From Candidatus Bathyarchaeota archaeon (lineage in GTDB: Archaea; Thermoproteota; Bathyarchaeia; Bathyarchaeales; Bathyarchaeaceae), in contig CAWDYQ010000002.1 in NCBI GenBank assembly GCA_963806645.1, forward strand, positions 11,141 through 75,140: a stretch of DNA of 64,000 bases, in the 5' to 3' direction. A program made the translations under genes and the position numbers. Position 1 is the first letter of the stretch. The number at the start of each line of letters is the position of its first letter. Of this stretch, positions 921 through 27,862 are shown piece by piece. The notes under the pieces were generated by a model. It saw nothing but the letters and a program-made list of their open reading frames with translations, had not been told where the DNA came from and did not search any database.

Positions 921-3515
921 TTATTTTTGTTTCTTAACTGTAATCAGAGTATATACTACAAGAACTGCTACTGCAACAACTGCAACAATTATGACAATGT
1001 CGATCGTAGTGTATTCTGGTATGGTTACAGCAGGCATTTCTGGAAATTCTGGCATCTGGGCTATTACTGCTTGACTAATTTGGTCGGGTGTTGGATTAAC
1101 GGGAAGACTGTTTACTACATTCTGTGCAACGTCTTGGGCCGATGGACCTTGGTATCCTGGAATTGTTGGATAAGGTGCCGGTGCTGGATCAACTGTTATA
1201 TATGTAACTGCTATTGAACCCCAGTATCCTCCTGAACCGTCGAATGACGCCATAATCATGTATTTTCCTTTGATTTGAGGTATGAAAGAATAAGCATAAT
1301 TACCAAAAGCATCAGTTGTTGCGGTTCCAATCCAAGCATATTCGTTGTTTGGATCAACTATCTCTATTTTTACTTGAATACCTTCGACATTCGTGGGACG
1401 TTCAAACTGCATGTAAACATAGCTCATCCATTCACTCATAGAAGCATCAGATACTGCTGGAACACCATCAGGGAATCTTGCAACGATTTCATCTTTTTTC
1501 GTGCCCGCCGAAACATCAGTTACCCTTCCTTCTAGAAGAACACTACTTCCAAGGTTTGTAACTTTAGGAGAAGCCATTACTGAAGTTGCACTGGGTCCTT
1601 TGCCTATTCCATATATGCGGTTGTCATAAGTATTGAAGAATCCTATTATTCCGTCGCCTATTACATTGTGTCCTCCCCAACGGTTCCCTCGCATGTTCAA
1701 TTCCCACTCTAAGTCTCCAGTGTCTGCATCAAGGCATATTGTTGGTGCACCTCGTGGCAGTGGATCAATTGGAGAATGTTCCATATGGAAGAGAACAATT
1801 TTTCTGTCAGCTGTATAGAATGCAAAAAGCATTGGCCAGTTCTCGCCCCACAATATCTCAGTATAGGGGTCGTTTACATTATACTCCCAAACGACATTGC
1901 CGTTAGCAAGATTGTATGCATAAACAATTCCAGCGAATCCAGTACAATAGAGTCTTCCTAGTCGGATATTTATACGAGCACCAAATGCGTCCAAATAATG
2001 TTGGCTTTCAGTTGTCCAACGATATGCTCCTGTTTCAGCACTAAAACCAATATGTTGTCTCGCTTCTTTATTCCACAATGTAAAAACACCGTCTTCTGCG
2101 CTCGCAACTCCCCATTGTATAGAATAGTTACCTGCTGGTGGTTGCCATTCAGTATTAAACAGCATTGTTCCTTGTTGACCTTCTTTAAGACTTATTCCCC
2201 ATAAAGAAATTGGAATATCTGTGCGACCAGTTGTTACGAGTTGATAAGTCCTACTGCTAGTACTAGTTCCGATTATTCGATCTTCCAGAACTGCATTTAC
2301 ACTTCCTGGTAAGTTTGTCGGTATTGAAACGTTCCATTCAAAACCAAGTTCATTAGCGTCTTCATAGACTCGTCCATGAGGGTTCCAGCTTCCTTCGCTA
2401 GAAACAACTCTTGATGAGTTCCATAGGGATATCCAACCATCTGCAAGGTCAATTGTGTAGATAAATATCTCACCTTTTGGTCCTCGAACTCTCGTTCCTG
2501 AAGGAACGTTCTCCATTGTATATACCCAACGTCCAGTATCATCAAATGCACGCCATGTTCTTCCAGTGGTTTCCCATAAGAAGGGGTATGCTCCATGAAG
2601 GTTATATGAGTCCCAATAGAATAGCTGACCAAAATCTAATGTTTTATTGTCCCAATTTCTAGTCCAAAGTTTTTCACCAGTACGAATGTCTACAGCAACA
2701 ACATTGTGTTCAATATTCGTACCTCCACGAGCTTCGTGATCGTTATAAAATAGTACACCATTAATTACTACTGAACCTGCAAATTTTCCTTCATAGGCAT
2801 CTCCGTGGTCATAACTATGATCGCCTAGTTCTCCTCCAACGAGTCCCCCAAATTCTAGTGGTTCTGCCCAGAGGATGTGTCCCGTGTCTGGGGCTTCGTT
2901 GTAAGGTGTGTATGGTCCTTCATAGCGGACAGATTCTAAGAAGTTTCCAGCTATTGGTGCCCATTCTCTGAGTTGTGCATCTACGGGTCGGCTCCAATAT
3001 TCGGTTGGCAACTGATGTCCAGAATAATATTCAATCGGAGTTTGTTGTACAACTAGGGTAAATTCTTCACTTACGCTAGCTTCATAATAAACATCAGCTG
3101 TATAAGCGGGGTATCTTGTCCAGTTGAACCATTGAGCCGGAAAATGTGTCTGCAATATGTATTCTCCAACCATGGTGGGTACATATATTGTACCTGTTCC
3201 TCCTGTGGAGTCGGTGTTAAATGGACCGAGAGTTTCTGTTTCTCCATCTGGTCTTCTGATTGTTGCTGTTAGTCCAATCCAGCTTTTGTCGGCTCTTTCT
3301 AGTTCATCATACATTCCTACGTGAATCAATACTTGTTGGTTAACTCCTATAGGGTTTGGAGTTGCCCCAACGTAACAATGGGTTGCTTTACTGTAAACAG
3401 GTGTTTGAGCAAAAATCACTGGCAATAATACGATGATTGAAGACATTGTTAACAATAGAATTAATGTTATTGTTGAAATTTTTGTTTTGGTTTTTGTGTT
3501 TTCCATTTTTTTCAC
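921..3515 (-). CDS. secreted PQQ-like beta-propeller repeat protein with C-terminal TM anchor (paralog 1)
   Basis: 864-aa ORF with an N-terminal signal peptide. Repeated motifs of the type VVAVDIRTGEKLW, VYAYNLANGNVVW and ICLDADTGDLEW resemble PQQ-like propeller blades. The C-terminus has a hydrophobic helix followed by KKQK. Confidence 0.75.
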   Translation of the reverse strand: MKKMENTKTKTKISTITLILLLTMSSIIVLLPVIFAQTPVYSKATHCYVGATPNPIGVNQQVLIHVGMYDELERADKSWIGLTATIRRPDGETETLGPFNTDSTGGTGTIYVPTMVGEYILQTHFPAQWFNWTRYPAYTADVYYEASVSEEFTLVVQQTPIEYYSGHQLPTEYWSRPVDAQLREWAPIAGNFLESVRYEGPYTPYNEAPDTGHILWAEPLEFGGLVGGELGDHSYDHGDAYEGKFAGSVVINGVLFYNDHEARGGTNIEHNVVAVDIRTGEKLWTRNWDNKTLDFGQLFYWDSYNLHGAYPFLWETTGRTWRAFDDTGRWVYTMENVPSGTRVRGPKGEIFIYTIDLADGWISLWNSSRVVSSEGSWNPHGRVYEDANELGFEWNVSIPTNLPGSVNAVLEDRIIGTSTSSRTYQLVTTGRTDIPISLWGISLKEGQQGTMLFNTEWQPPAGNYSIQWGVASAEDGVFTLWNKEARQHIGFSAETGAYRWTTESQHYLDAFGARINIRLGRLYCTGFAGIVYAYNLANGNVVWEYNVNDPYTEILWGENWPMLFAFYTADRKIVLFHMEHSPIDPLPRGAPTICLDADTGDLEWELNMRGNRWGGHNVIGDGIIGFFNTYDNRIYGIGKGPSATSVMASPKVTNLGSSVLLEGRVTDVSAGTKKDEIVARFPDGVPAVSDASMSEWMSYVYMQFERPTNVEGIQVKIEIVDPNNEYAWIGTATTDAFGNYAYSFIPQIKGKYMIMASFDGSGGYWGSIAVTYITVDPAPAPYPTIPGYQGPSAQDVAQNVVNSLPVNPTPDQISQAVIAQMPEFPEMPAVTIPEYTTIDIVIIVAVVAVAVLVVYTLITVKKQK

Positions 3516-3908: not shown

Positions 3909-6503
3909 TTATTTCTTTTTATTGAGCACTAAGAAACTGATGATACCGATCATAATGGCTACGACAACGAGTACAGTAAGGATAATGTCGATTGTAGAAT
4001 ATTCTGGTACTACTGTAGGTTCAGGGTATTCTGGAAGTTGGCTTATAACTGCTTGACTGATTTGTTCAGGAGTTGGATTGTCAGGAAGACTGTTCACTAC
4101 ATTCTGTGCAACATCTTGTGCTGAAGGACCTTGATATCCTGGATATGGTGGAATTGTCACTTGTGCTGGTGCAGGATCAACTACAAGATAAGTTGTTGAA
4201 GTTGAACCATAATATGCTTCTGACCCATCGAAAGTTGCAATTATTGTGTAAGTGCCTTGCATTTGTGGGATAAATGAATAACCAAAGTTGCCGTATGCGT
4301 CACTAGTTGCTGTGCCAATCCATGCATATGCGCCTGAAGGATCAACTACTTGGATTCTTACGTCAACACCAACTGCATCTGCTGGTCGATCTTTTTGCAT
4401 AAACTTGTATTCCATCCATGCACTCATGTATTCATCAGAAATTGCTGGAGTACCCTTAAACTCAGAACCTGGAGACTGATCAGTTACTGTTCCTGTTACC
4501 ATTACACTGGATCCTTTTGGAACTGCGGTCATTGGAGCTGAAACAGTTAATGCGCTTGGTCCTTTACCGATACAGTATACTGAACCATCATATGCGTTCA
4601 AATAAACTAAGTTTCCGTCTGCGATAGCGATAGGTGCAATTGATGTTCCTAATCCTGAAGCAGACCATCCAAGTAGATTCCAAAGTTCTTCTCCGGTAAA
4701 TGCGTCAACAGCATATACTCTGTATCCTTTGTATAGAGGTGTATTTGGTGAATGCTCACCAGAAAATGCATAAACGACTCCGTTAGAAACTGCAGACAAT
4801 TGGATTGGAGTAAGACCCCAAGGTACTTCTGCTCCTAGGTTTGTGTCACTGAATTTCCAAAGTAGACTACCGTTTGCCATTGAATAACAGAAAATTTCTC
4901 CTCCATAACCGGCAATGTATAGGTTTCCGTATGCTGGGAAGCCTTGTCTGTTGCTGTAGTATTGAAATGCCCGTTGTTCTCCAACTGGACCCCACAATAG
5001 GTCTCCGGTGTCAATACTATAACCGGTTCGTTGGCCTGTCTGGAAGTCTGTCATTGTCCATACACGGTTGACTGGGTCTAGTGGTTGCATTGCTAACATT
5101 CGGGTAATGTTGTTTGCTGGTGCTGGATAGTCTCGGATCCAAAGTAATTGGCCTCTTGTTTCTGGTTTGTCGCTTATGGCCCACATTGTCCATGGGTCAG
5201 GATTGTTATCTCTTGCTTGTGAAGTGAGTGTTATGCCACTGCTGCGTCCAAGTATTAAGTCTCCGGGGATTATACCAACTATGGCTGGGTTTGAGTTTCC
5301 AGGCAAATCAGGGATTGAGACGTTCCAGGAATATGCTTGACTTGCGTCAATTTCTTTTTCCATTGGTCTCCAGCTGATTTCGTTGAATCCAGTTCCTGCA
5401 ACTCCTGCTGCTGCGGTGTTATTCCAGAGAAGAAGTCTACGGTCTCCATAGTTAAGCACATAACGTACTATCTCACCTTTTTCGGTGTATACTTCTGTTC
5501 CTCCAGGAACACCAGTTAAGTTGAAAACGTTGAGTCCGGTGAATGCGTCAATACCTATCCATGTGCTTCCGGCAGTTGCCCATAGGGTACCTCCTACGAC
5601 TCCATGTTGGTTTGGTGACTCGAAATTATAGAGTTGTGCAAAACTTGGGGTGATGTCGTATCTTCGCCAGAGTTCTTCGCCTGTTCGCAAATCAACAGCA
5701 ACGAATCCTCCACCGCTTCCAGCATGGTTCAAAGGTTGTCGGTAATAGAGTATTCCGCTTACGATCATTGGATTACCAAATCGTGTCTCATAAGAATAGC
5801 CAGAGTAGAAAGTTGTGTGACTATCTCCTCCTACCATACCTCCGAACTCGATTGGTTTTGACCATAGTATGTGTGAGGTAGTCGGTGAATTGCCTCCGTC
5901 TTGCCAGCGATCATCAACATCTCCTCCGTTTAGCCAATTTGATGAGATGTCACCCCATAGGTGGTTTGCTCCATCTACTGGACGGGTCCAATATTCTGTT
6001 GGAAGTGCAGCTTCGGGTATTCCTGTTACTTGTTCTTCTTGGACAGTTAGTGTAGTTGTTGCGCTGCTAGGAAGATAATAGTCGTTTTGGTATGCTCCTC
6101 CAAAATCATATACTTGTCCTGGGAAATTGAACTCTAAAGTGTATGTTCCTACTTGATCAGGAACATATACTGTATATGCTGATGATGTTGTGTCTACAAC
6201 GATTGGCCAGTTGACTGTTACTGTGTTTCCGTCAGGTTTTGTTATAGTTAGTACGTAACCCTCAAATCGGATATCGTTAGTGATACTTGCTGAGTTAATT
6301 ACTCTTTCCAACCATACCACAATGAGGGCTGGTTGGTTAACTCCGGACGGGTTGGGTGAAACGTTGATGAATGCGTGTGTTGGAAGTTGCCATGCAGGAT
6401 CATGTGCAGTGACAGATGTTAAAGTAATTAATGCGGTAGATAGAGTTAACAATAGAATTAATGATATTACAGAAATTTTTGATTTTAATTGACTTTTTTT
6501 CAT
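3909..6503 (-). CDS. secreted PQQ-like beta-propeller repeat protein with C-terminal TM anchor (paralog 2)
   Basis: 864-aa ORF, the same length as 921..3515. It has a signal peptide and the same blade motifs (FVAVDLRTGEELW, IFCYSMANGSLLW, VYAVDAFTGEELW). The C-terminal block GYQGPSAQDVAQNVVNSLP.NPTP.QISQAVI is nearly identical to paralog 1. Confidence 0.75.
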   Translation of the reverse strand: MKKSQLKSKISVISLILLLTLSTALITLTSVTAHDPAWQLPTHAFINVSPNPSGVNQPALIVVWLERVINSASITNDIRFEGYVLTITKPDGNTVTVNWPIVVDTTSSAYTVYVPDQVGTYTLEFNFPGQVYDFGGAYQNDYYLPSSATTTLTVQEEQVTGIPEAALPTEYWTRPVDGANHLWGDISSNWLNGGDVDDRWQDGGNSPTTSHILWSKPIEFGGMVGGDSHTTFYSGYSYETRFGNPMIVSGILYYRQPLNHAGSGGGFVAVDLRTGEELWRRYDITPSFAQLYNFESPNQHGVVGGTLWATAGSTWIGIDAFTGLNVFNLTGVPGGTEVYTEKGEIVRYVLNYGDRRLLLWNNTAAAGVAGTGFNEISWRPMEKEIDASQAYSWNVSIPDLPGNSNPAIVGIIPGDLILGRSSGITLTSQARDNNPDPWTMWAISDKPETRGQLLWIRDYPAPANNITRMLAMQPLDPVNRVWTMTDFQTGQRTGYSIDTGDLLWGPVGEQRAFQYYSNRQGFPAYGNLYIAGYGGEIFCYSMANGSLLWKFSDTNLGAEVPWGLTPIQLSAVSNGVVYAFSGEHSPNTPLYKGYRVYAVDAFTGEELWNLLGWSASGLGTSIAPIAIADGNLVYLNAYDGSVYCIGKGPSALTVSAPMTAVPKGSSVMVTGTVTDQSPGSEFKGTPAISDEYMSAWMEYKFMQKDRPADAVGVDVRIQVVDPSGAYAWIGTATSDAYGNFGYSFIPQMQGTYTIIATFDGSEAYYGSTSTTYLVVDPAPAQVTIPPYPGYQGPSAQDVAQNVVNSLPDNPTPEQISQAVISQLPEYPEPTVVPEYSTIDIILTVLVVVAIMIGIISFLVLNKKK

Positions 6504-16456: not shown

Positions 16457-16741
16457 TTGCCTGCAATGGAAATAGGAAGAATATGCATTAAAATCTTAGG
16501 ACGAGAAGCAGGAAAAAAATGTGTAATAGTAGATCTTGTTGACAAAAACTTCGTTCTAATCACTGGTCCTAAAGCAACCACTAGCATAAAAAGGAGACGC
16601 GCTAACATAAATCACTTACAAATTACTCAAGAAAAAATTGATATAAACCGAGGAGCAACCGACGAGGAAGTCACCGAAGCACTAAAAGCTGCGGGTAAAC
16701 TCGAAGAAATGAACGAGATAGCCAAACCTGCCCTTTCCTAA
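16457..16741 (+). CDS. rpl14e: 50S ribosomal protein L14e
   Basis: MPAMEIGRICIKILGREAGKKCVIVDLVDKNFVLITGPK...KRRRANINHL closely follows the archaeal L14e KOW pattern. The start codon is TTG. Confidence 0.9.
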   Translation: MPAMEIGRICIKILGREAGKKCVIVDLVDKNFVLITGPKATTSIKRRRANINHLQITQEKIDINRGATDEEVTEALKAAGKLEEMNEIAKPALS

Positions 16742-16778: not shown

Positions 16779-17801
16779 ATGAGAAGAATCAATGAACCAT
16801 GGAAAATAAATCGAAGCATGGTAGTCAAAGCTGAGGAAGAAACCAACATGCGTTTTGGCTGCAAACCAGACGAACGTCCAATTAAAGATCACATACGATT
16901 TGGAATAATAAACGTGGACAAACCTGCTGGACCATCAAGCCATGAGGTTACAGCATGGGTTAAACGAATCCTCAGTTTCGAAAAAGCTGGTCATGGCGGG
17001 ACCCTTGAGGCCTAATCTGGCCGGGGAAATCCCAAAGTTACCGGCGTTCTACCCAATGCAATAGAGGATGCTACAAAAATAATTCAGGCTCTTCTGCTAG
17101 CAGGTAAAGAATACGTTTGTGTAATGAAACTACATTCTCAAGTTTCAGAAGATCGCGTAAAAGAAGTTTTAGATGAATTTCAGGGACCATTATACCAACG
17201 GCCCCCAGTTCGTTCTTCGGTTAAACGAAGACTTAGAACAAGAACAATCTACTATAATGATTACTATGAGATGGATGGAAAAAATGTCCTCTTCAAAGTT
17301 GGATGCGAAGCTGGAACATACATCAGAAAACTGTGCTACGACATCGGTGAGGCCCTAGGTTGCGGAGCCCACATGCAAGAGCTAAGAAGAACAAGAGTTG
17401 GACCATTTATTGAAGACGAAAGTTTAGTCACTCTACATGATATTACTTATTTGTATAGTCAATGGCAGGAAACTAAAGATGAAAACCTGCTAAGAAAATT
17501 CATTTATCCCATGGAAAAAGCCTTAGAACTGATGCCAAAAATCCATATACGAGACTCAGCGGTAGACGCCCTATGTCACGGAGCACACTTAACAGCACCA
17601 GGAGTAGTTTCACTAGATTCAGGAATAAAAATCGGCGACCAAGTAGCGGTCCTGACCCAGAAAGGAGAAGCGATAACATTATCAAAAGCCTTTGTTTCCA
17701 GCGAAAAGATACTTAACATGGATCATGGATTCGTAGCAAGAACTGAACGGGTTATGATGCCCCGCGGTATCTACCCTAAGATGTGGCACAGCAATGCTTG
17801 A
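16779..17801 (+). CDS. cbf5: tRNA/rRNA pseudouridine synthase Cbf5 (TruB + PUA domains), coding sequence interrupted by a 21-nt BHB intron
   Basis: ORFs 16779..17015 and 17124..17801 are in the same frame. Joining 16779..17007 to 17029..17801 gives 334 codons with KAGHGGTLDPKVTGVLP, AGKEYVCVMKLH, QRPPVRSSVKRRLRTR, GTYIRKLCYDIG and a PUA C-terminus. Confidence 0.9.
17008..17028 (+). other. bulge-helix-bulge intron in cbf5 pre-mRNA (predicted)
   Basis: Hand fold of 16998-17033. Outer helix GGGA/TCCC; central helix CCCT/GGGG; 3-nt bulges TGA and AAA; inner helix GGCC/GGCC with loop TAATCT. Cutting after the second nucleotide of each bulge restores the codon GAT (Asp). Confidence 0.7.
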
Positions 17802-17856: not shown

Positions 17857-17996
17857 GCCGAGGTGTCCTAGAGCATCTTGCGGGAAATCTGGTAGGGAGC
17901 AGATTCCAACAAAGGAAGCTAAAGCCTGGAATCTCTGACTACGGTAAGCCTGTGATCCATTGGGTCGCGAGGGTTCAAATCCCTCCCTCGGCGCCA
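17857..17996 (+). tRNA. intron-containing tRNA gene with encoded CCA; identity unresolved (tentatively class II Ser-GGA; alternative Trp-CCA)
   Basis: The acceptor stem is 7 bp: GCCGAGG (17857-63) with CCTCGGC (17986-92). The T arm is GAGGG-TTCAAAT-CCCTC (17969-85). The discriminator is G, followed by CCA. At 140 nt the gene carries about 50 nt more than a mature tRNA. Confidence 0.8.
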
Positions 17997-25776: not shown

Positions 25777-27862
25777 TTAATTTTTCTGATGTTTTTCCCA
25801 GAATTTTGCCATAATGTCTTCACAATCAATTGGATTCTTTACTATCTTCATTTCCTTTTGATAGTAACTTGGGAGTAAATATTTGATATTTGGCTGAGTA
25901 ATTCGTTCATCCAACATTACTATACATCCTTTGTCTTTAGCTGACCGATGAACACGTCCACAAGCTTGAACCAAACGAAAAATTGCCGGTGTCAGATAAG
26001 CGTAAGCTCTTCCATTTCCTGGAAATTGATAATCAAAATATTTTATCAACGCTTGCTGGTATACATTCCATGTTGCATAAGGCAGTCCAACGGTTACAAC
26101 ACACTTGAGAATGTTATCGGGATAATCCATTCCTTCGCTGAATTTCCCGCCCATAACTCCAAACAATGCGTTATTGTCTGATTTGGTCAGTTTCTCCATT
26201 AATTCGGTTCTTCTTGTTTTGCGTTCTTCTACAATCATTCCTCTATCGATGTCGATGTGTGAAAGAATTGTATTCATCAAGTTATAACTGGTAAAGAAGA
26301 CTCCAATGTTTCCCATTATTTGTCATTGATATGACTTCAATATATTCTGCCCATTTCTTGAGCATTTGATCTGTCCTCCTTTCAAATCTAGATGAGACAT
26401 CACAGGCAGCTAAAATAAGCCGATTTTCAGGCGGGAAAGGAGAATCGAATTCTCTGAGTCGGACATCTTCATTACTACGAAGAATCAAATCTCTATAGAC
26501 TTTAGGCGGAGAAAGAAAACCACTCATAACAATGCTACCCCTAGCCTGCCGAAGAACAGGATCAGTTATTTCCCTACCATCTAAACTTTTTACAGACAAA
26601 TATGTTCTATCGCCCCAATCCTTCTGGAGCAGGTGAACATATTTTTCTCCGACCTTCTGGAAGAAGTTATCAACAAAGTCACCCACCCTATGTGTGTAAC
26701 TAAAAATCCGGTCATGACCTAACTCTTGACGTACCTCTTTTACGTGTTCCCCGAATTCATGGAGAGTTTCTGCAGCTTCTTCGCTTGATGTTCCAGTCCA
26801 ATCGCGGAATTTATCAGATAGATCCTGTTGGTTTAGAAGTTTTAGGGTAGCATTTCCTAAACCTTTCTGGGCATATCGAAAAACGTCATCATCTATCACA
26901 TTGAGGTAATCTTGGACATCTCCCACTGTCTTGTGATCAAAATTTTCGGTTTCTTTGATAGCACTTTCAACAGTTTTTTGGGTAATCTGATCGGATAAAA
27001 GGTCACGAGCAAAGTTTGGAATATTATGAGCTTCATCTACTATTAAATAAACTTTTGATAAATCTACACCCCAACTCTGTAGAAGTGCTTTTCTAACGGG
27101 GGGGTTAAAAGTATAGTTGTATGTTCCTAAGAAAAGTTGCGCCCTGCTGAGATTTCTTTTCAGCATCTCGTATGCACAGAATCCCTGCCTAGCCATTAGT
27201 CGTGCGGCCTCTTGAGGATCCATGATTTTTCGGATACAATCAAGAGCTAGTTCTTCGGCTTGTCTCTTTCTCTTGTTCATGTTCCAATAGAAACTGCAAA
27301 AAGGCTTGTTTCCAGATTCACAATTTTCTTTGAGTCTTCTGCATTCCTCAAGAAAGTCAAAATATGATCCAGCTCTTTTTTTGGCTAAAGGGCACATGTC
27401 CTGTTTGCTGAAGAATGAAACGGTGTTAGGGGGTTTTTTGAGTCCTCTAAGTTCTTTTAGGAAGATGTGTAATTGGCTTCTAGTTCTAAAGCTAACTAGT
27501 AGCTTGTTGTTTTCGAGTTGGGGTAAAACGCTGAGAAGTGATGCTAGAGATTTCCCTATGCCACAGGGGGCGCTGCCAATGAAAACTTTGTTGGTTTCTA
27601 GGGCTTTTTTTGCTTCTTCGATAAACTCTACTTGTCCTTTCCGGACTTCGTAGCCTCTTGGGAGCAACTGGTTGTCAGATATTTCATTGTCTGGTGCTGT
27701 TTTTAGTGTAGTAATGTATTTCCTAGATGGGCTAGTTGCAGAGACTATTTTCGCCGTAAGGTAAGTTCCACAATCGAGACAGAATCTACTCTGGTTAAAC
27801 TGTTCAATGGAATGTTTTTTTCTGCATTTTCGACAAACGTAGATTCTGGTCAATTTTCTCAT
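25777..27862 (-). pseudogene. xpd: XPD/Rad3-type Fe-S DNA helicase with N-terminal zinc ribbon; +1 frameshift near 26300
   Basis: N-terminal zinc ribbon is CRKCRKK...CLDCG. Walker A is GSAPCGIGKS, with Fe-S Cys ligands (CPLAKK...ECRRLKENC...CSFYW...CAYE) and a DEAH box (VDEAHN). ORFs 26282..27862 and 25777..26316 join as ...SMTNNG/NIGVFFTSY if one A of GGGAAACA is removed. Confidence 0.8.

Follow-up and report, generated by a model that had tools for sequence, protein, structure and literature searches.

We describe here an intron in the coding sequence of cbf5, found in a 64-kb stretch of DNA (the window) from contig CAWDYQ010000002.1 of a Candidatus Bathyarchaeota archaeon. The 21 nucleotides (nt) that interrupt this gene, AGGCCTAATCTGGCCGGGGAA, are very probably a genuine archaeal bulge-helix-bulge (BHB) intron of the cbf5 pre-mRNA, which the tRNA-splicing endonuclease EndA would cut and RtcB would ligate, so that active Cbf5 is made. 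Established here are the structure of the element, the exact restoration of the open reading frame (ORF) upon its removal, the identity of its site with the published crenarchaeal one, its conservation with covariation among relatives and a codon signature in the flanking exons. By these sequence comparisons it is a known kind of intron at a known site, but in a lineage and with a breadth undescribed in the literature searched. Because the host is bathyarchaeal and not classical crenarchaeal, the finding extends the known distribution rather than being a re-sighting.

The gene appears as two ORFs (16779-17015 and the frame continuing to 17801), and translation confirms what the initial annotation had proposed, that both lie in one frame and are split at the catalytic Asp by ...GGTLEA-stop-SGRGNPKV.... 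Around the interruption, the sequence GGGACCCTTGAGGCCTAATCTGGCCGGGGAAATCCC forms an hBHBh' motif (Table 1), that is, a BHB core with flanking helices h and h', both of 4 bp in the window. Its coordinates and letters had been assigned by hand in the initial annotation and are all right: the minimum free energy (MFE) fold of 16990-17041 calculated with ViennaRNA is identical to the proposed motif, ((((((((...((((......))))))))...)))), at -18.5 kcal/mol, and the structure is retained when folded within a 151-nt context. The order of the elements is that of the canonical tRNA 37/38 intron, with the outer helix followed by the exonic 5' strand of the central helix, a bulge, the inner hairpin, the intronic 3' strand of the central helix, the second bulge and the outer helix again.

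When 17008..17028 is removed in silico, cutting after the second nucleotide of each bulge, CTT-G is joined to AT-CCC and the GAT codon for Asp is recreated, giving the Leu-Asp-Pro and the full ORF that had been predicted. The predicted spliced junction (marked by a slash) is ACCCTTG/ATCCCAAAG, or, with more of exon 1, ...GGGACCCTTG/ATCCCAAAG...; the excision gives ...GHGGTLDPKVTG... across it, and the ORF has 333 codons plus the stop and reads ...GHGGTLDPKVTGVLP.... Excision of 17009..17029 yields an identical product, the junction being ambiguous by 1 nt because the intron and exon 2 each start with A. The spliced protein of 333 amino acids (aa) scores 464.6 bits against the NCBIfam equivalog NF003280 (cutoff 242), has the complete DKCLD/TruB_N/TruB_C_2/PUA architecture and aligns without gaps to the solved Pyrococcus Cbf5 structures in the PDB, GHGGTLDPKV included (E = 5.5e-126). 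The unspliced 78-aa exon 1 fragment matches positions 2-67 of the Cbf5 model, and exon 1 carries the DKCLD domain.

In the mechanism that we propose, the exon codons GGG-ACC-CTT-G and AT-CCC would base-pair among themselves and with the 3'-terminal stretch of the intron, and this pairing would present two 3-nt bulges with a 4-bp helix between them. EndA would cut after the second nucleotide of each bulge, and an RtcB-type ligase would join CTT-G to AT-CCC. The catalytic Asp would thereby regain its GAT codon, and the resulting Cbf5 of 333 aa would serve as the pseudouridine synthase of H/ACA ribonucleoproteins. An unspliced mRNA would instead terminate at the in-frame TAA, six nt into the intron, as a 78-aa fragment without the active site, which agrees with the truncated, dead protein foreseen in the initial annotation. 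Since the unspliced mRNA would give this fragment only, active Cbf5 would depend on the tRNA-splicing machinery.

Table 1. Features of the cbf5 locus and its surroundings; positions are those of the window, except in the last row.
Feature	Position	Strand	Details
Ribosomal protein L14e gene	16457..16741	+	directly upstream of cbf5; NCBIfam NF003320, 124 bits vs cutoff 87
cbf5 exon 1	16779..17007	+	from Met1 to G, the first letter of the catalytic Asp codon; from ORF list and translation
hBHBh' motif	16998..17033	+	sequence given in the text
Outer helix	GGGA 16998-17001 / TCCC 17030-33	+	4 bp
Central helix	CCCT 17002-05 / GGGG 17023-26	+	4 bp; 5' strand exon, 3' strand intron
Bulges	TGA 17006-08, AAA 17027-29	+	3 nt each
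Inner helix	GGCC 17009-12 / GGCC 17019-22	+	4 bp; loop TAATCT 17013-18
Predicted BHB intron	17008..17028	+	21 nt; in-frame TAA at 17013-17015
cbf5 exon 2	17029..17801	+	from AT of the Asp codon to the stop codon; TruB_N, TruB_C_2 and PUA domains
tRNA-Ser(GGA) gene	17857..17996	+	140 nt, 55 nt downstream of cbf5; three BHB-type introns
tRNA-Ser intron 1	17872-17887	+	16 nt, D-loop
tRNA-Ser intron 2	17903-17923	+	21 nt, position 29/30
tRNA-Ser intron 3	17932-17946	+	15 nt, canonical 37/38
cbf5 intron of L206 / L207	JANXEE010000030.1 / JAVQTC010000002.1, ~1455-1510		22 nt

The strongest support for a functional BHB, as the initial annotation had read it, comes from comparison with relatives. We collected 80 species-representative loci of Bathyarchaeia ranked by tblastn (L001-L080), and in 43 of them the gene is interrupted at precisely this nucleotide by an insertion of 18, 20, 21, 24, 30, 33, 36 or 39 nt, while the remaining 37 have an uninterrupted GAC or GAT; with the window this makes 44 genomic copies with the insertion. 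A second set of at least 120 loci (L081-L200) was obtained by a frame-blind DNA-pattern scan of metagenome contigs for CACGGNGGNACNYTNG-N14-44-AYCCNNNNGTNWSNGG. Among the matches listed, 117 of 120 are cbf5 with an insertion at this site (at least 117 contigs), 14-40 nt long. The preference for lengths divisible by three in the genomic copies (41/44) was rejected as an artefact: we suspected that the tblastn ranking favours insertions that keep the frame, and the frame-blind scan gave 29, 35 and 53 insertions in the three length classes modulo 3. Thus, 88 of the 117 listed metagenomic insertions shift the frame, and must therefore be removed for the protein to be made.

Pairing of the central helix is conserved in all 44 genomic copies and in 110 of the 117 metagenomic ones among the matches listed. 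In the genomic sequences it occurs as CCCT/GGGG, CCCT/AGGG, CTCT/AGAG, CTCT/GGAG or CCTT/AAGG, and since every one of these versions is paired, a synonymous change in the Thr or Leu codon goes along with a matching change at the intron's 3' terminus. We counted pairs in a fixed-register alignment of 34 distinct homologues (A1), sliding the 3' partners as a control; 94.9% of the cells are paired (100% in the central helix) compared with at most 58% in the slid registers. Five pairs show compensatory double changes, three of them in the inner helix, and in the central helix double changes from C-G to U-A are found in 15 and 2 of the 34 sequences. The observed covariation score was matched by none of 500 shuffles. 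The intron sequences themselves are diverse, with 148 distinct ones among the 161 (44 genomic and 117 metagenomic among the matches listed), and in some relatives the outer helix is down to 0-1 bp, the relaxed form.

The exon codons around the insertion carry a matching signature. Gly is encoded by GGG in 39/44 copies with the intron and in 5/37 intronless loci, Asp by GAT in 40/44 and 8/37, and Pro by CCC in 41/44 and 9/37, respectively; for Thr, ACA occurs in none of the 44 and in 14 of the 37. By these codon counts, synonymous sites in the exons are kept in a pairing state only where the intron is present. A further signature lies inside the intron, as an in-frame stop is present within the insertion in 44/44 genomic copies and, among the matches listed, in 134 of the 161 introns, compared with 47.6 expected from shuffled introns. 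This excess may reflect selection for immediate termination on unspliced mRNA. Most of these stops are TAA or TAG placed where the hairpin loop begins, although most of the introns also shift the frame.

Several points weigh against the splicing interpretation. Compared with dinucleotide shuffles, the fold gains no extra stability (z = -1.14 and -0.70), and as these scores are not significant we discarded fold stability as evidence. BHB-like geometry is also common by chance, with 251 strict and more than 6,300 relaxed arrangements in the 64-kb window, so a geometry scan has no discriminating power by itself and was rejected as proof. Since the sequences compared are related, fewer independent changes underlie them than the tally of covarying cells suggests. 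A scan of 20 ORFs of the window turned up neither endA nor rtcB, and their presence in the genome is assumed. Finally, cleavage and ligation in vivo, like any regulatory role, are steps that we infer from the sequence. What does lie far beyond chance is the position in the catalytic codon, together with the way in which excision restores a conserved protein exactly and the recurrence of the arrangement in relatives; in a screen of the window for ORF-joining BHB excisions, cbf5 alone was convincing among ~100 candidates.

In Crenarchaeota, the cbf5 intron separates the first letter of the catalytic Asp codon from the second and measures 16-44 bp (Yokobori et al. 2009, PMC2738675). Whether the bathyarchaeal insertion occupies the same site could not be verified in the initial annotation; it does, at the same bond, G/AT between 17007 and 17029. 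The intron known from Aeropyrum pernix, Sulfolobus spp. and other Desulfurococcales and Sulfolobales (Watanabe et al. 2002, Yokobori et al. 2009) thus shares with ours the gene and insertion point, the size class (21 nt here and 14-40 nt in relatives), the lack of an ORF or homing endonuclease, the predicted cleavage between bulge residues 2 and 3, and a patchy presence and absence suggesting gain and loss. The differences are in the host, which is here a member of Bathyarchaeia and outside the reported range, and in the structure: ours is a canonical hBHBh' in the strict sense, each flanking helix having 4 bp, while most crenarchaeal cbf5 introns were described as unconventional or relaxed BHBs that need a heterotetrameric endonuclease (PMC2738675). 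Moreover, splicing has been shown experimentally for the crenarchaeal intron, whereas here it is predicted.

The reported distribution of the cbf5 intron comprises Desulfurococcales and Sulfolobales only, with none in Thermoproteales, Cenarchaeum, Nitrosopumilus or Korarchaeum (PMC2738675), and a review mentions 'only one example ... in the cbf5 mRNA in crenarchaeota' (PMC7714728). In the literature searched, which comprised papers available without subscription, we found no report of a cbf5 intron in Bathyarchaeota, Thaumarchaeota, Aigarchaeota, Korarchaeota or Verstraetearchaeota. Two genomes deposited as Thaumarchaeota (GCA_025058225.1 and GCA_033581515.1; L206 and L207 in Table 1) carry a perfect 22-nt hBHBh' at the same bond, GGGA CCCT GGA GGCC-GGAGGGA-GGCC GGGG AGA TCCC. 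Gene calls at these two loci are overlapping ORFs of 112 aa and 255 aa, of which the truncated 255-aa piece is Cbf5 in NCBI naming. Likewise, the metagenome loci L165 and L199 match exon-2-only 'Cbf5' fragments named by NCBI from 'Thaumarchaeota archaeon' metagenome-assembled genomes (MAGs). The nearest references of some other metagenome loci are crenarchaeal (L166, 76% to S. tokodaii; L087, 76% to D. mucosus; L176, 72% to I. aggregans), which is no more than a coarse assignment, as the reference Cbf5 sequences come from a machine-read supplement with reading errors. Loci nearest the Sulfolobales and Desulfurococcales references have the same nucleotide, bulge sequences and layout (A, hairpin, GGGG, A-N) as the bathyarchaeal loci. 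On these matches, the cbf5 intron is spread over several classes of Thermoproteota.

How this distribution arose is a separate question from the mechanism. It is tempting to speculate, although we hold it only tentatively and as possible rather than probable, that the intron is an ancient and selectively maintained element of the Thermoproteota (TACK), kept at one bond by Bathyarchaeia, Thermoprotei and the MAGs deposited under the name Thaumarchaeota, repeatedly lost by precise deletion and acting as a functional checkpoint. In the neighbour-joining Cbf5 tree, which as a single-protein tree is indicative only, the intron-bearing clades are deep and the intronless clades are nested among them, a pattern of gain and loss like the one described for crenarchaea. 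The same interleaving of clades would also be expected if the intron, though a real BHB intron, had arisen in Bathyarchaeia independently of the crenarchaeal one, by convergence at GGN-ACN-CTN-GAY-CCN, conserved codons that easily make up one half of a BHB, and the absence of the intron that Yokobori et al. saw in Thermoproteales, Korarchaeum and ammonia-oxidising Thaumarchaeota (PMC2738675) points the same way. Furthermore, the conserved amino acids fix the exon strand of the central helix, so that any intron at this site must end in a GGGG- or AGAG-like sequence; the sequence shared with crenarchaeal-type loci is largely dictated by pairing with conserved codons. However, the loci nearest Sulfolobales and Desulfurococcales, as well as those in the 'Thaumarchaeota' MAGs, share the exact position, the bulges and the layout, and it is more parsimonious to assume that an intron at one phosphodiester bond was retained and sometimes lost, or transferred laterally, than that it was gained independently again and again. 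We consider independent origins less likely than not, a choice that leaves the splicing mechanism itself unaffected.

A checkpoint function is proposed because a strict BHB is combined with an excess of in-frame stops at the 5' end of the intron. If this were true, the cell would make the H/ACA pseudouridine synthase only while its tRNA-splicing endonuclease and ligase are active, and the checkpoint would block translation of a dead, possibly dominant-negative Cbf5 from unspliced mRNA. A regulatory role could also take the form of negative regulation, the stop-codon excess suggesting rather a checkpoint with a fail-safe stop; negative regulation via the cbf5 intron was previously proposed by Watanabe and Yokobori (PMC2738675).

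Could the locus simply be a pseudogene, inactivated by a stop-bearing 21-nt insertion with an incidental hairpin? The TAA does interrupt the unspliced frame, the fold energy is unremarkable, and in the assemblies of near-identical strains gene callers split cbf5 into genes of 78 aa and 225 aa. But both halves are open and conserved, with 81-86% aa identity to relatives, and the same interruption recurs in dozens of lineages with covarying structure and exon codon constraints, without further disabling mutations in the exons or elevated non-synonymous change. In addition, Cbf5 is universal in archaea, and the check for a second intact copy proposed in the initial annotation found none in the 64-kb window by tblastn. 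Decay of the gene is accordingly very improbable.

We consider it equally improbable that the 21 nt are dealt with at translation, through ribosomal bypassing or hopping, stop-codon read-through or two polypeptides that assemble. It is true that a stable hairpin which begins with an in-frame stop is reminiscent of bypass elements such as that of T4 gene 60, a known case of ribosomal bypass. None of these routes, though, can supply the invariant catalytic Asp, as GAT arises solely by joining G to AT; there are no matched take-off and landing codons; most of the homologous insertions, at lengths of 14-40 nt, shift the frame by 1 or 2 nt; and the conserved feature is the 3-4-3 bulge-helix-bulge geometry and not a codon pair. 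As for a two-piece protein, the next in-frame start after the stop is at 17124, downstream of the conserved active-site motifs. Weakest of all is an assembly or sequencing artefact of the window, for which nothing specific speaks beyond the general fact that mis-assembly can create short insertions, and which is excluded for practical purposes because the same 21 nt are present in three independent assemblies of near-identical strains (ENA ERZ27251119 and ERZ27251069, and JGI 3300032276; 0-2 mismatches over ~500 nt), with homologous insertions in the complete genomes CP070820.1 and CP122380.1.

Two variant loci deserve mention. L204 (JGI 3300033528, Ga0316588_1018302) shares 95% identity over 1.59 kb with L010, a locus with a 21-nt intron, and lacks exactly those 21 nt while still reading GGG ACC CTT GAT CCC (junction at 581-613). 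Its downstream tRNA-Ser retains the introns, its 5' end lies directly after a TATA-like box, upstream of the expected transcription start, and its 3' end is exactly at the tRNA discriminator base. This contig is either genomic DNA after a very recent and precise intron loss or cDNA of a spliced mRNA, and we lean towards DNA because the tRNA-Ser is unspliced and the 5' end precedes the transcription start; under either origin, the deleted segment coincides with the predicted intron. In L205 (JGI 3300057026, gene 91-1086), the 'full-length' Cbf5 homologue P0002 (76% identity) has the sequence ...LVRAGRGNPKVTG...; HGGTLD and the catalytic Asp are missing from it, and it has residues matching read-through of the 3' end of the intron. 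The locus has a deletion over the end of exon 1 and the 5' part of the intron, and is either a defective allele or a mis-assembly.

Excision of a short, non-spliceosomal intron from an mRNA is also seen in the splicing of HAC1/XBP1, a regulated stress response in which the endonuclease Ire1 recognises paired stem-loops and a tRNA-type ligase joins the exons. As with cbf5, the active protein depends on the excision; unlike cbf5, the nuclease is Ire1 and the signal is stem-loops rather than a BHB. Comparable too are the BHB introns of archaeal tRNAs and rRNAs that EndA processes, with the same 3-nt bulge, 4-bp helix and 3-nt bulge and the canonical 37/38 layout. In contrast to these, the element here lies in a coding sequence, its removal must restore frame and codon, and no tRNA body aids recognition. 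In Haloferax volcanii, the 5' untranslated region of HVO_1309 has a BHB intron and the mRNA is processed by the tRNA-splicing endonuclease (PMC7714728); this is likewise an mRNA substrate, but the intron lies there in the untranslated leader of a euryarchaeal gene, and here in the active-site codon.

These results overturn the stated distribution of the sole well-studied archaeal coding-sequence intron, limited until now to a handful of hot-spring crenarchaea of the Sulfolobales and Desulfurococcales. The cbf5 BHB intron is common in the Bathyarchaeia, among the most abundant archaea of sediments, where more than half of the species-level genomes sampled carry it, and it is found in other non-crenarchaeal lineages as well. 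This reopens the age of mRNA splicing by the tRNA endonuclease and the question of why one site has been kept. The hundreds of natural variants constitute a mutational map of what EndA needs in an mRNA, and an enrichment culture is at hand: the genome of Ca. Bathyarchaeum tardum M17C-01 (CP122380.1, L011) has a homologous insertion of 21 nt, AGGCTTAATTTAGCCGGGGAA, at this very position. On the practical side, gene callers split or truncate cbf5 in intron-bearing genomes and the truncated fragments nevertheless exceed the cutoff of the Cbf5 model, so a universal archaeal marker is mis-annotated in many MAGs, and multi-intron tRNAs such as the one next to cbf5 escape tRNA finders.

With regard to the host, the initial annotation had left its placement to be made; judged by proteins and by genome loci, its closest genomes all belong to Bathyarchaeia, the best being Ca. 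Bathyarchaeum and Bathyarchaeota MAGs with 79-86% aa identity. From these matches the host is placed as a member of Bathyarchaeia related to Ca. Bathyarchaeum. The gene order is common to relatives, the L14e gene also preceding cbf5 in L201-L204.

On the other side of cbf5, the tRNA-Ser gene recurs in at least 14 related genomes, where the loops of its introns vary. It was detected neither by ARAGORN, with or without the intron option, nor by the Rfam tRNA model, and we set its exon and intron limits by conservation blocks in 14 relatives and BHB geometry; brute-force excision combined with ARAGORN was too permissive to decide and was abandoned. After the three in-silico excisions, an 88-nt tRNA-Ser(GGA) with a clean class-II cloverleaf remains. 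Because this tRNA needs three BHB excisions, two of them non-canonical, the organism would require a working splicing endonuclease able to cut at non-canonical positions too, and the tRNA would be a second substrate of the machinery that splices cbf5. At its 3' end, intron 1 of the tRNA-Ser reads ...TTGC GGGA AA/T and the cbf5 intron ...GGCC GGGG AA/A, both with a G-rich central strand followed by an AA bulge. The likeness could be a coincidence or a local preference of the endonuclease.

Elsewhere in the window, an XPD/Rad3-type helicase (25777-27862, minus strand) is split into two ORFs, of 526 aa (DEAD_2, HBB) and 179 aa (Helicase_C_2), which lie in different frames and share 35 nt. A 1-nt shift at ~26303-26320, in AATAATGGGAAACATTGG, would join ...SMTNN to GNIGVFFTSY.... 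We rejected it as a second coding intron, since no BHB is present and the split is a 1-nt frame shift instead, which would be a sequencing error, a true frameshift or programmed frameshifting. Lastly, two adjacent ORFs on the minus strand (921-3515 and 3909-6503), both of 864 aa, are possibly tandem paralogues.

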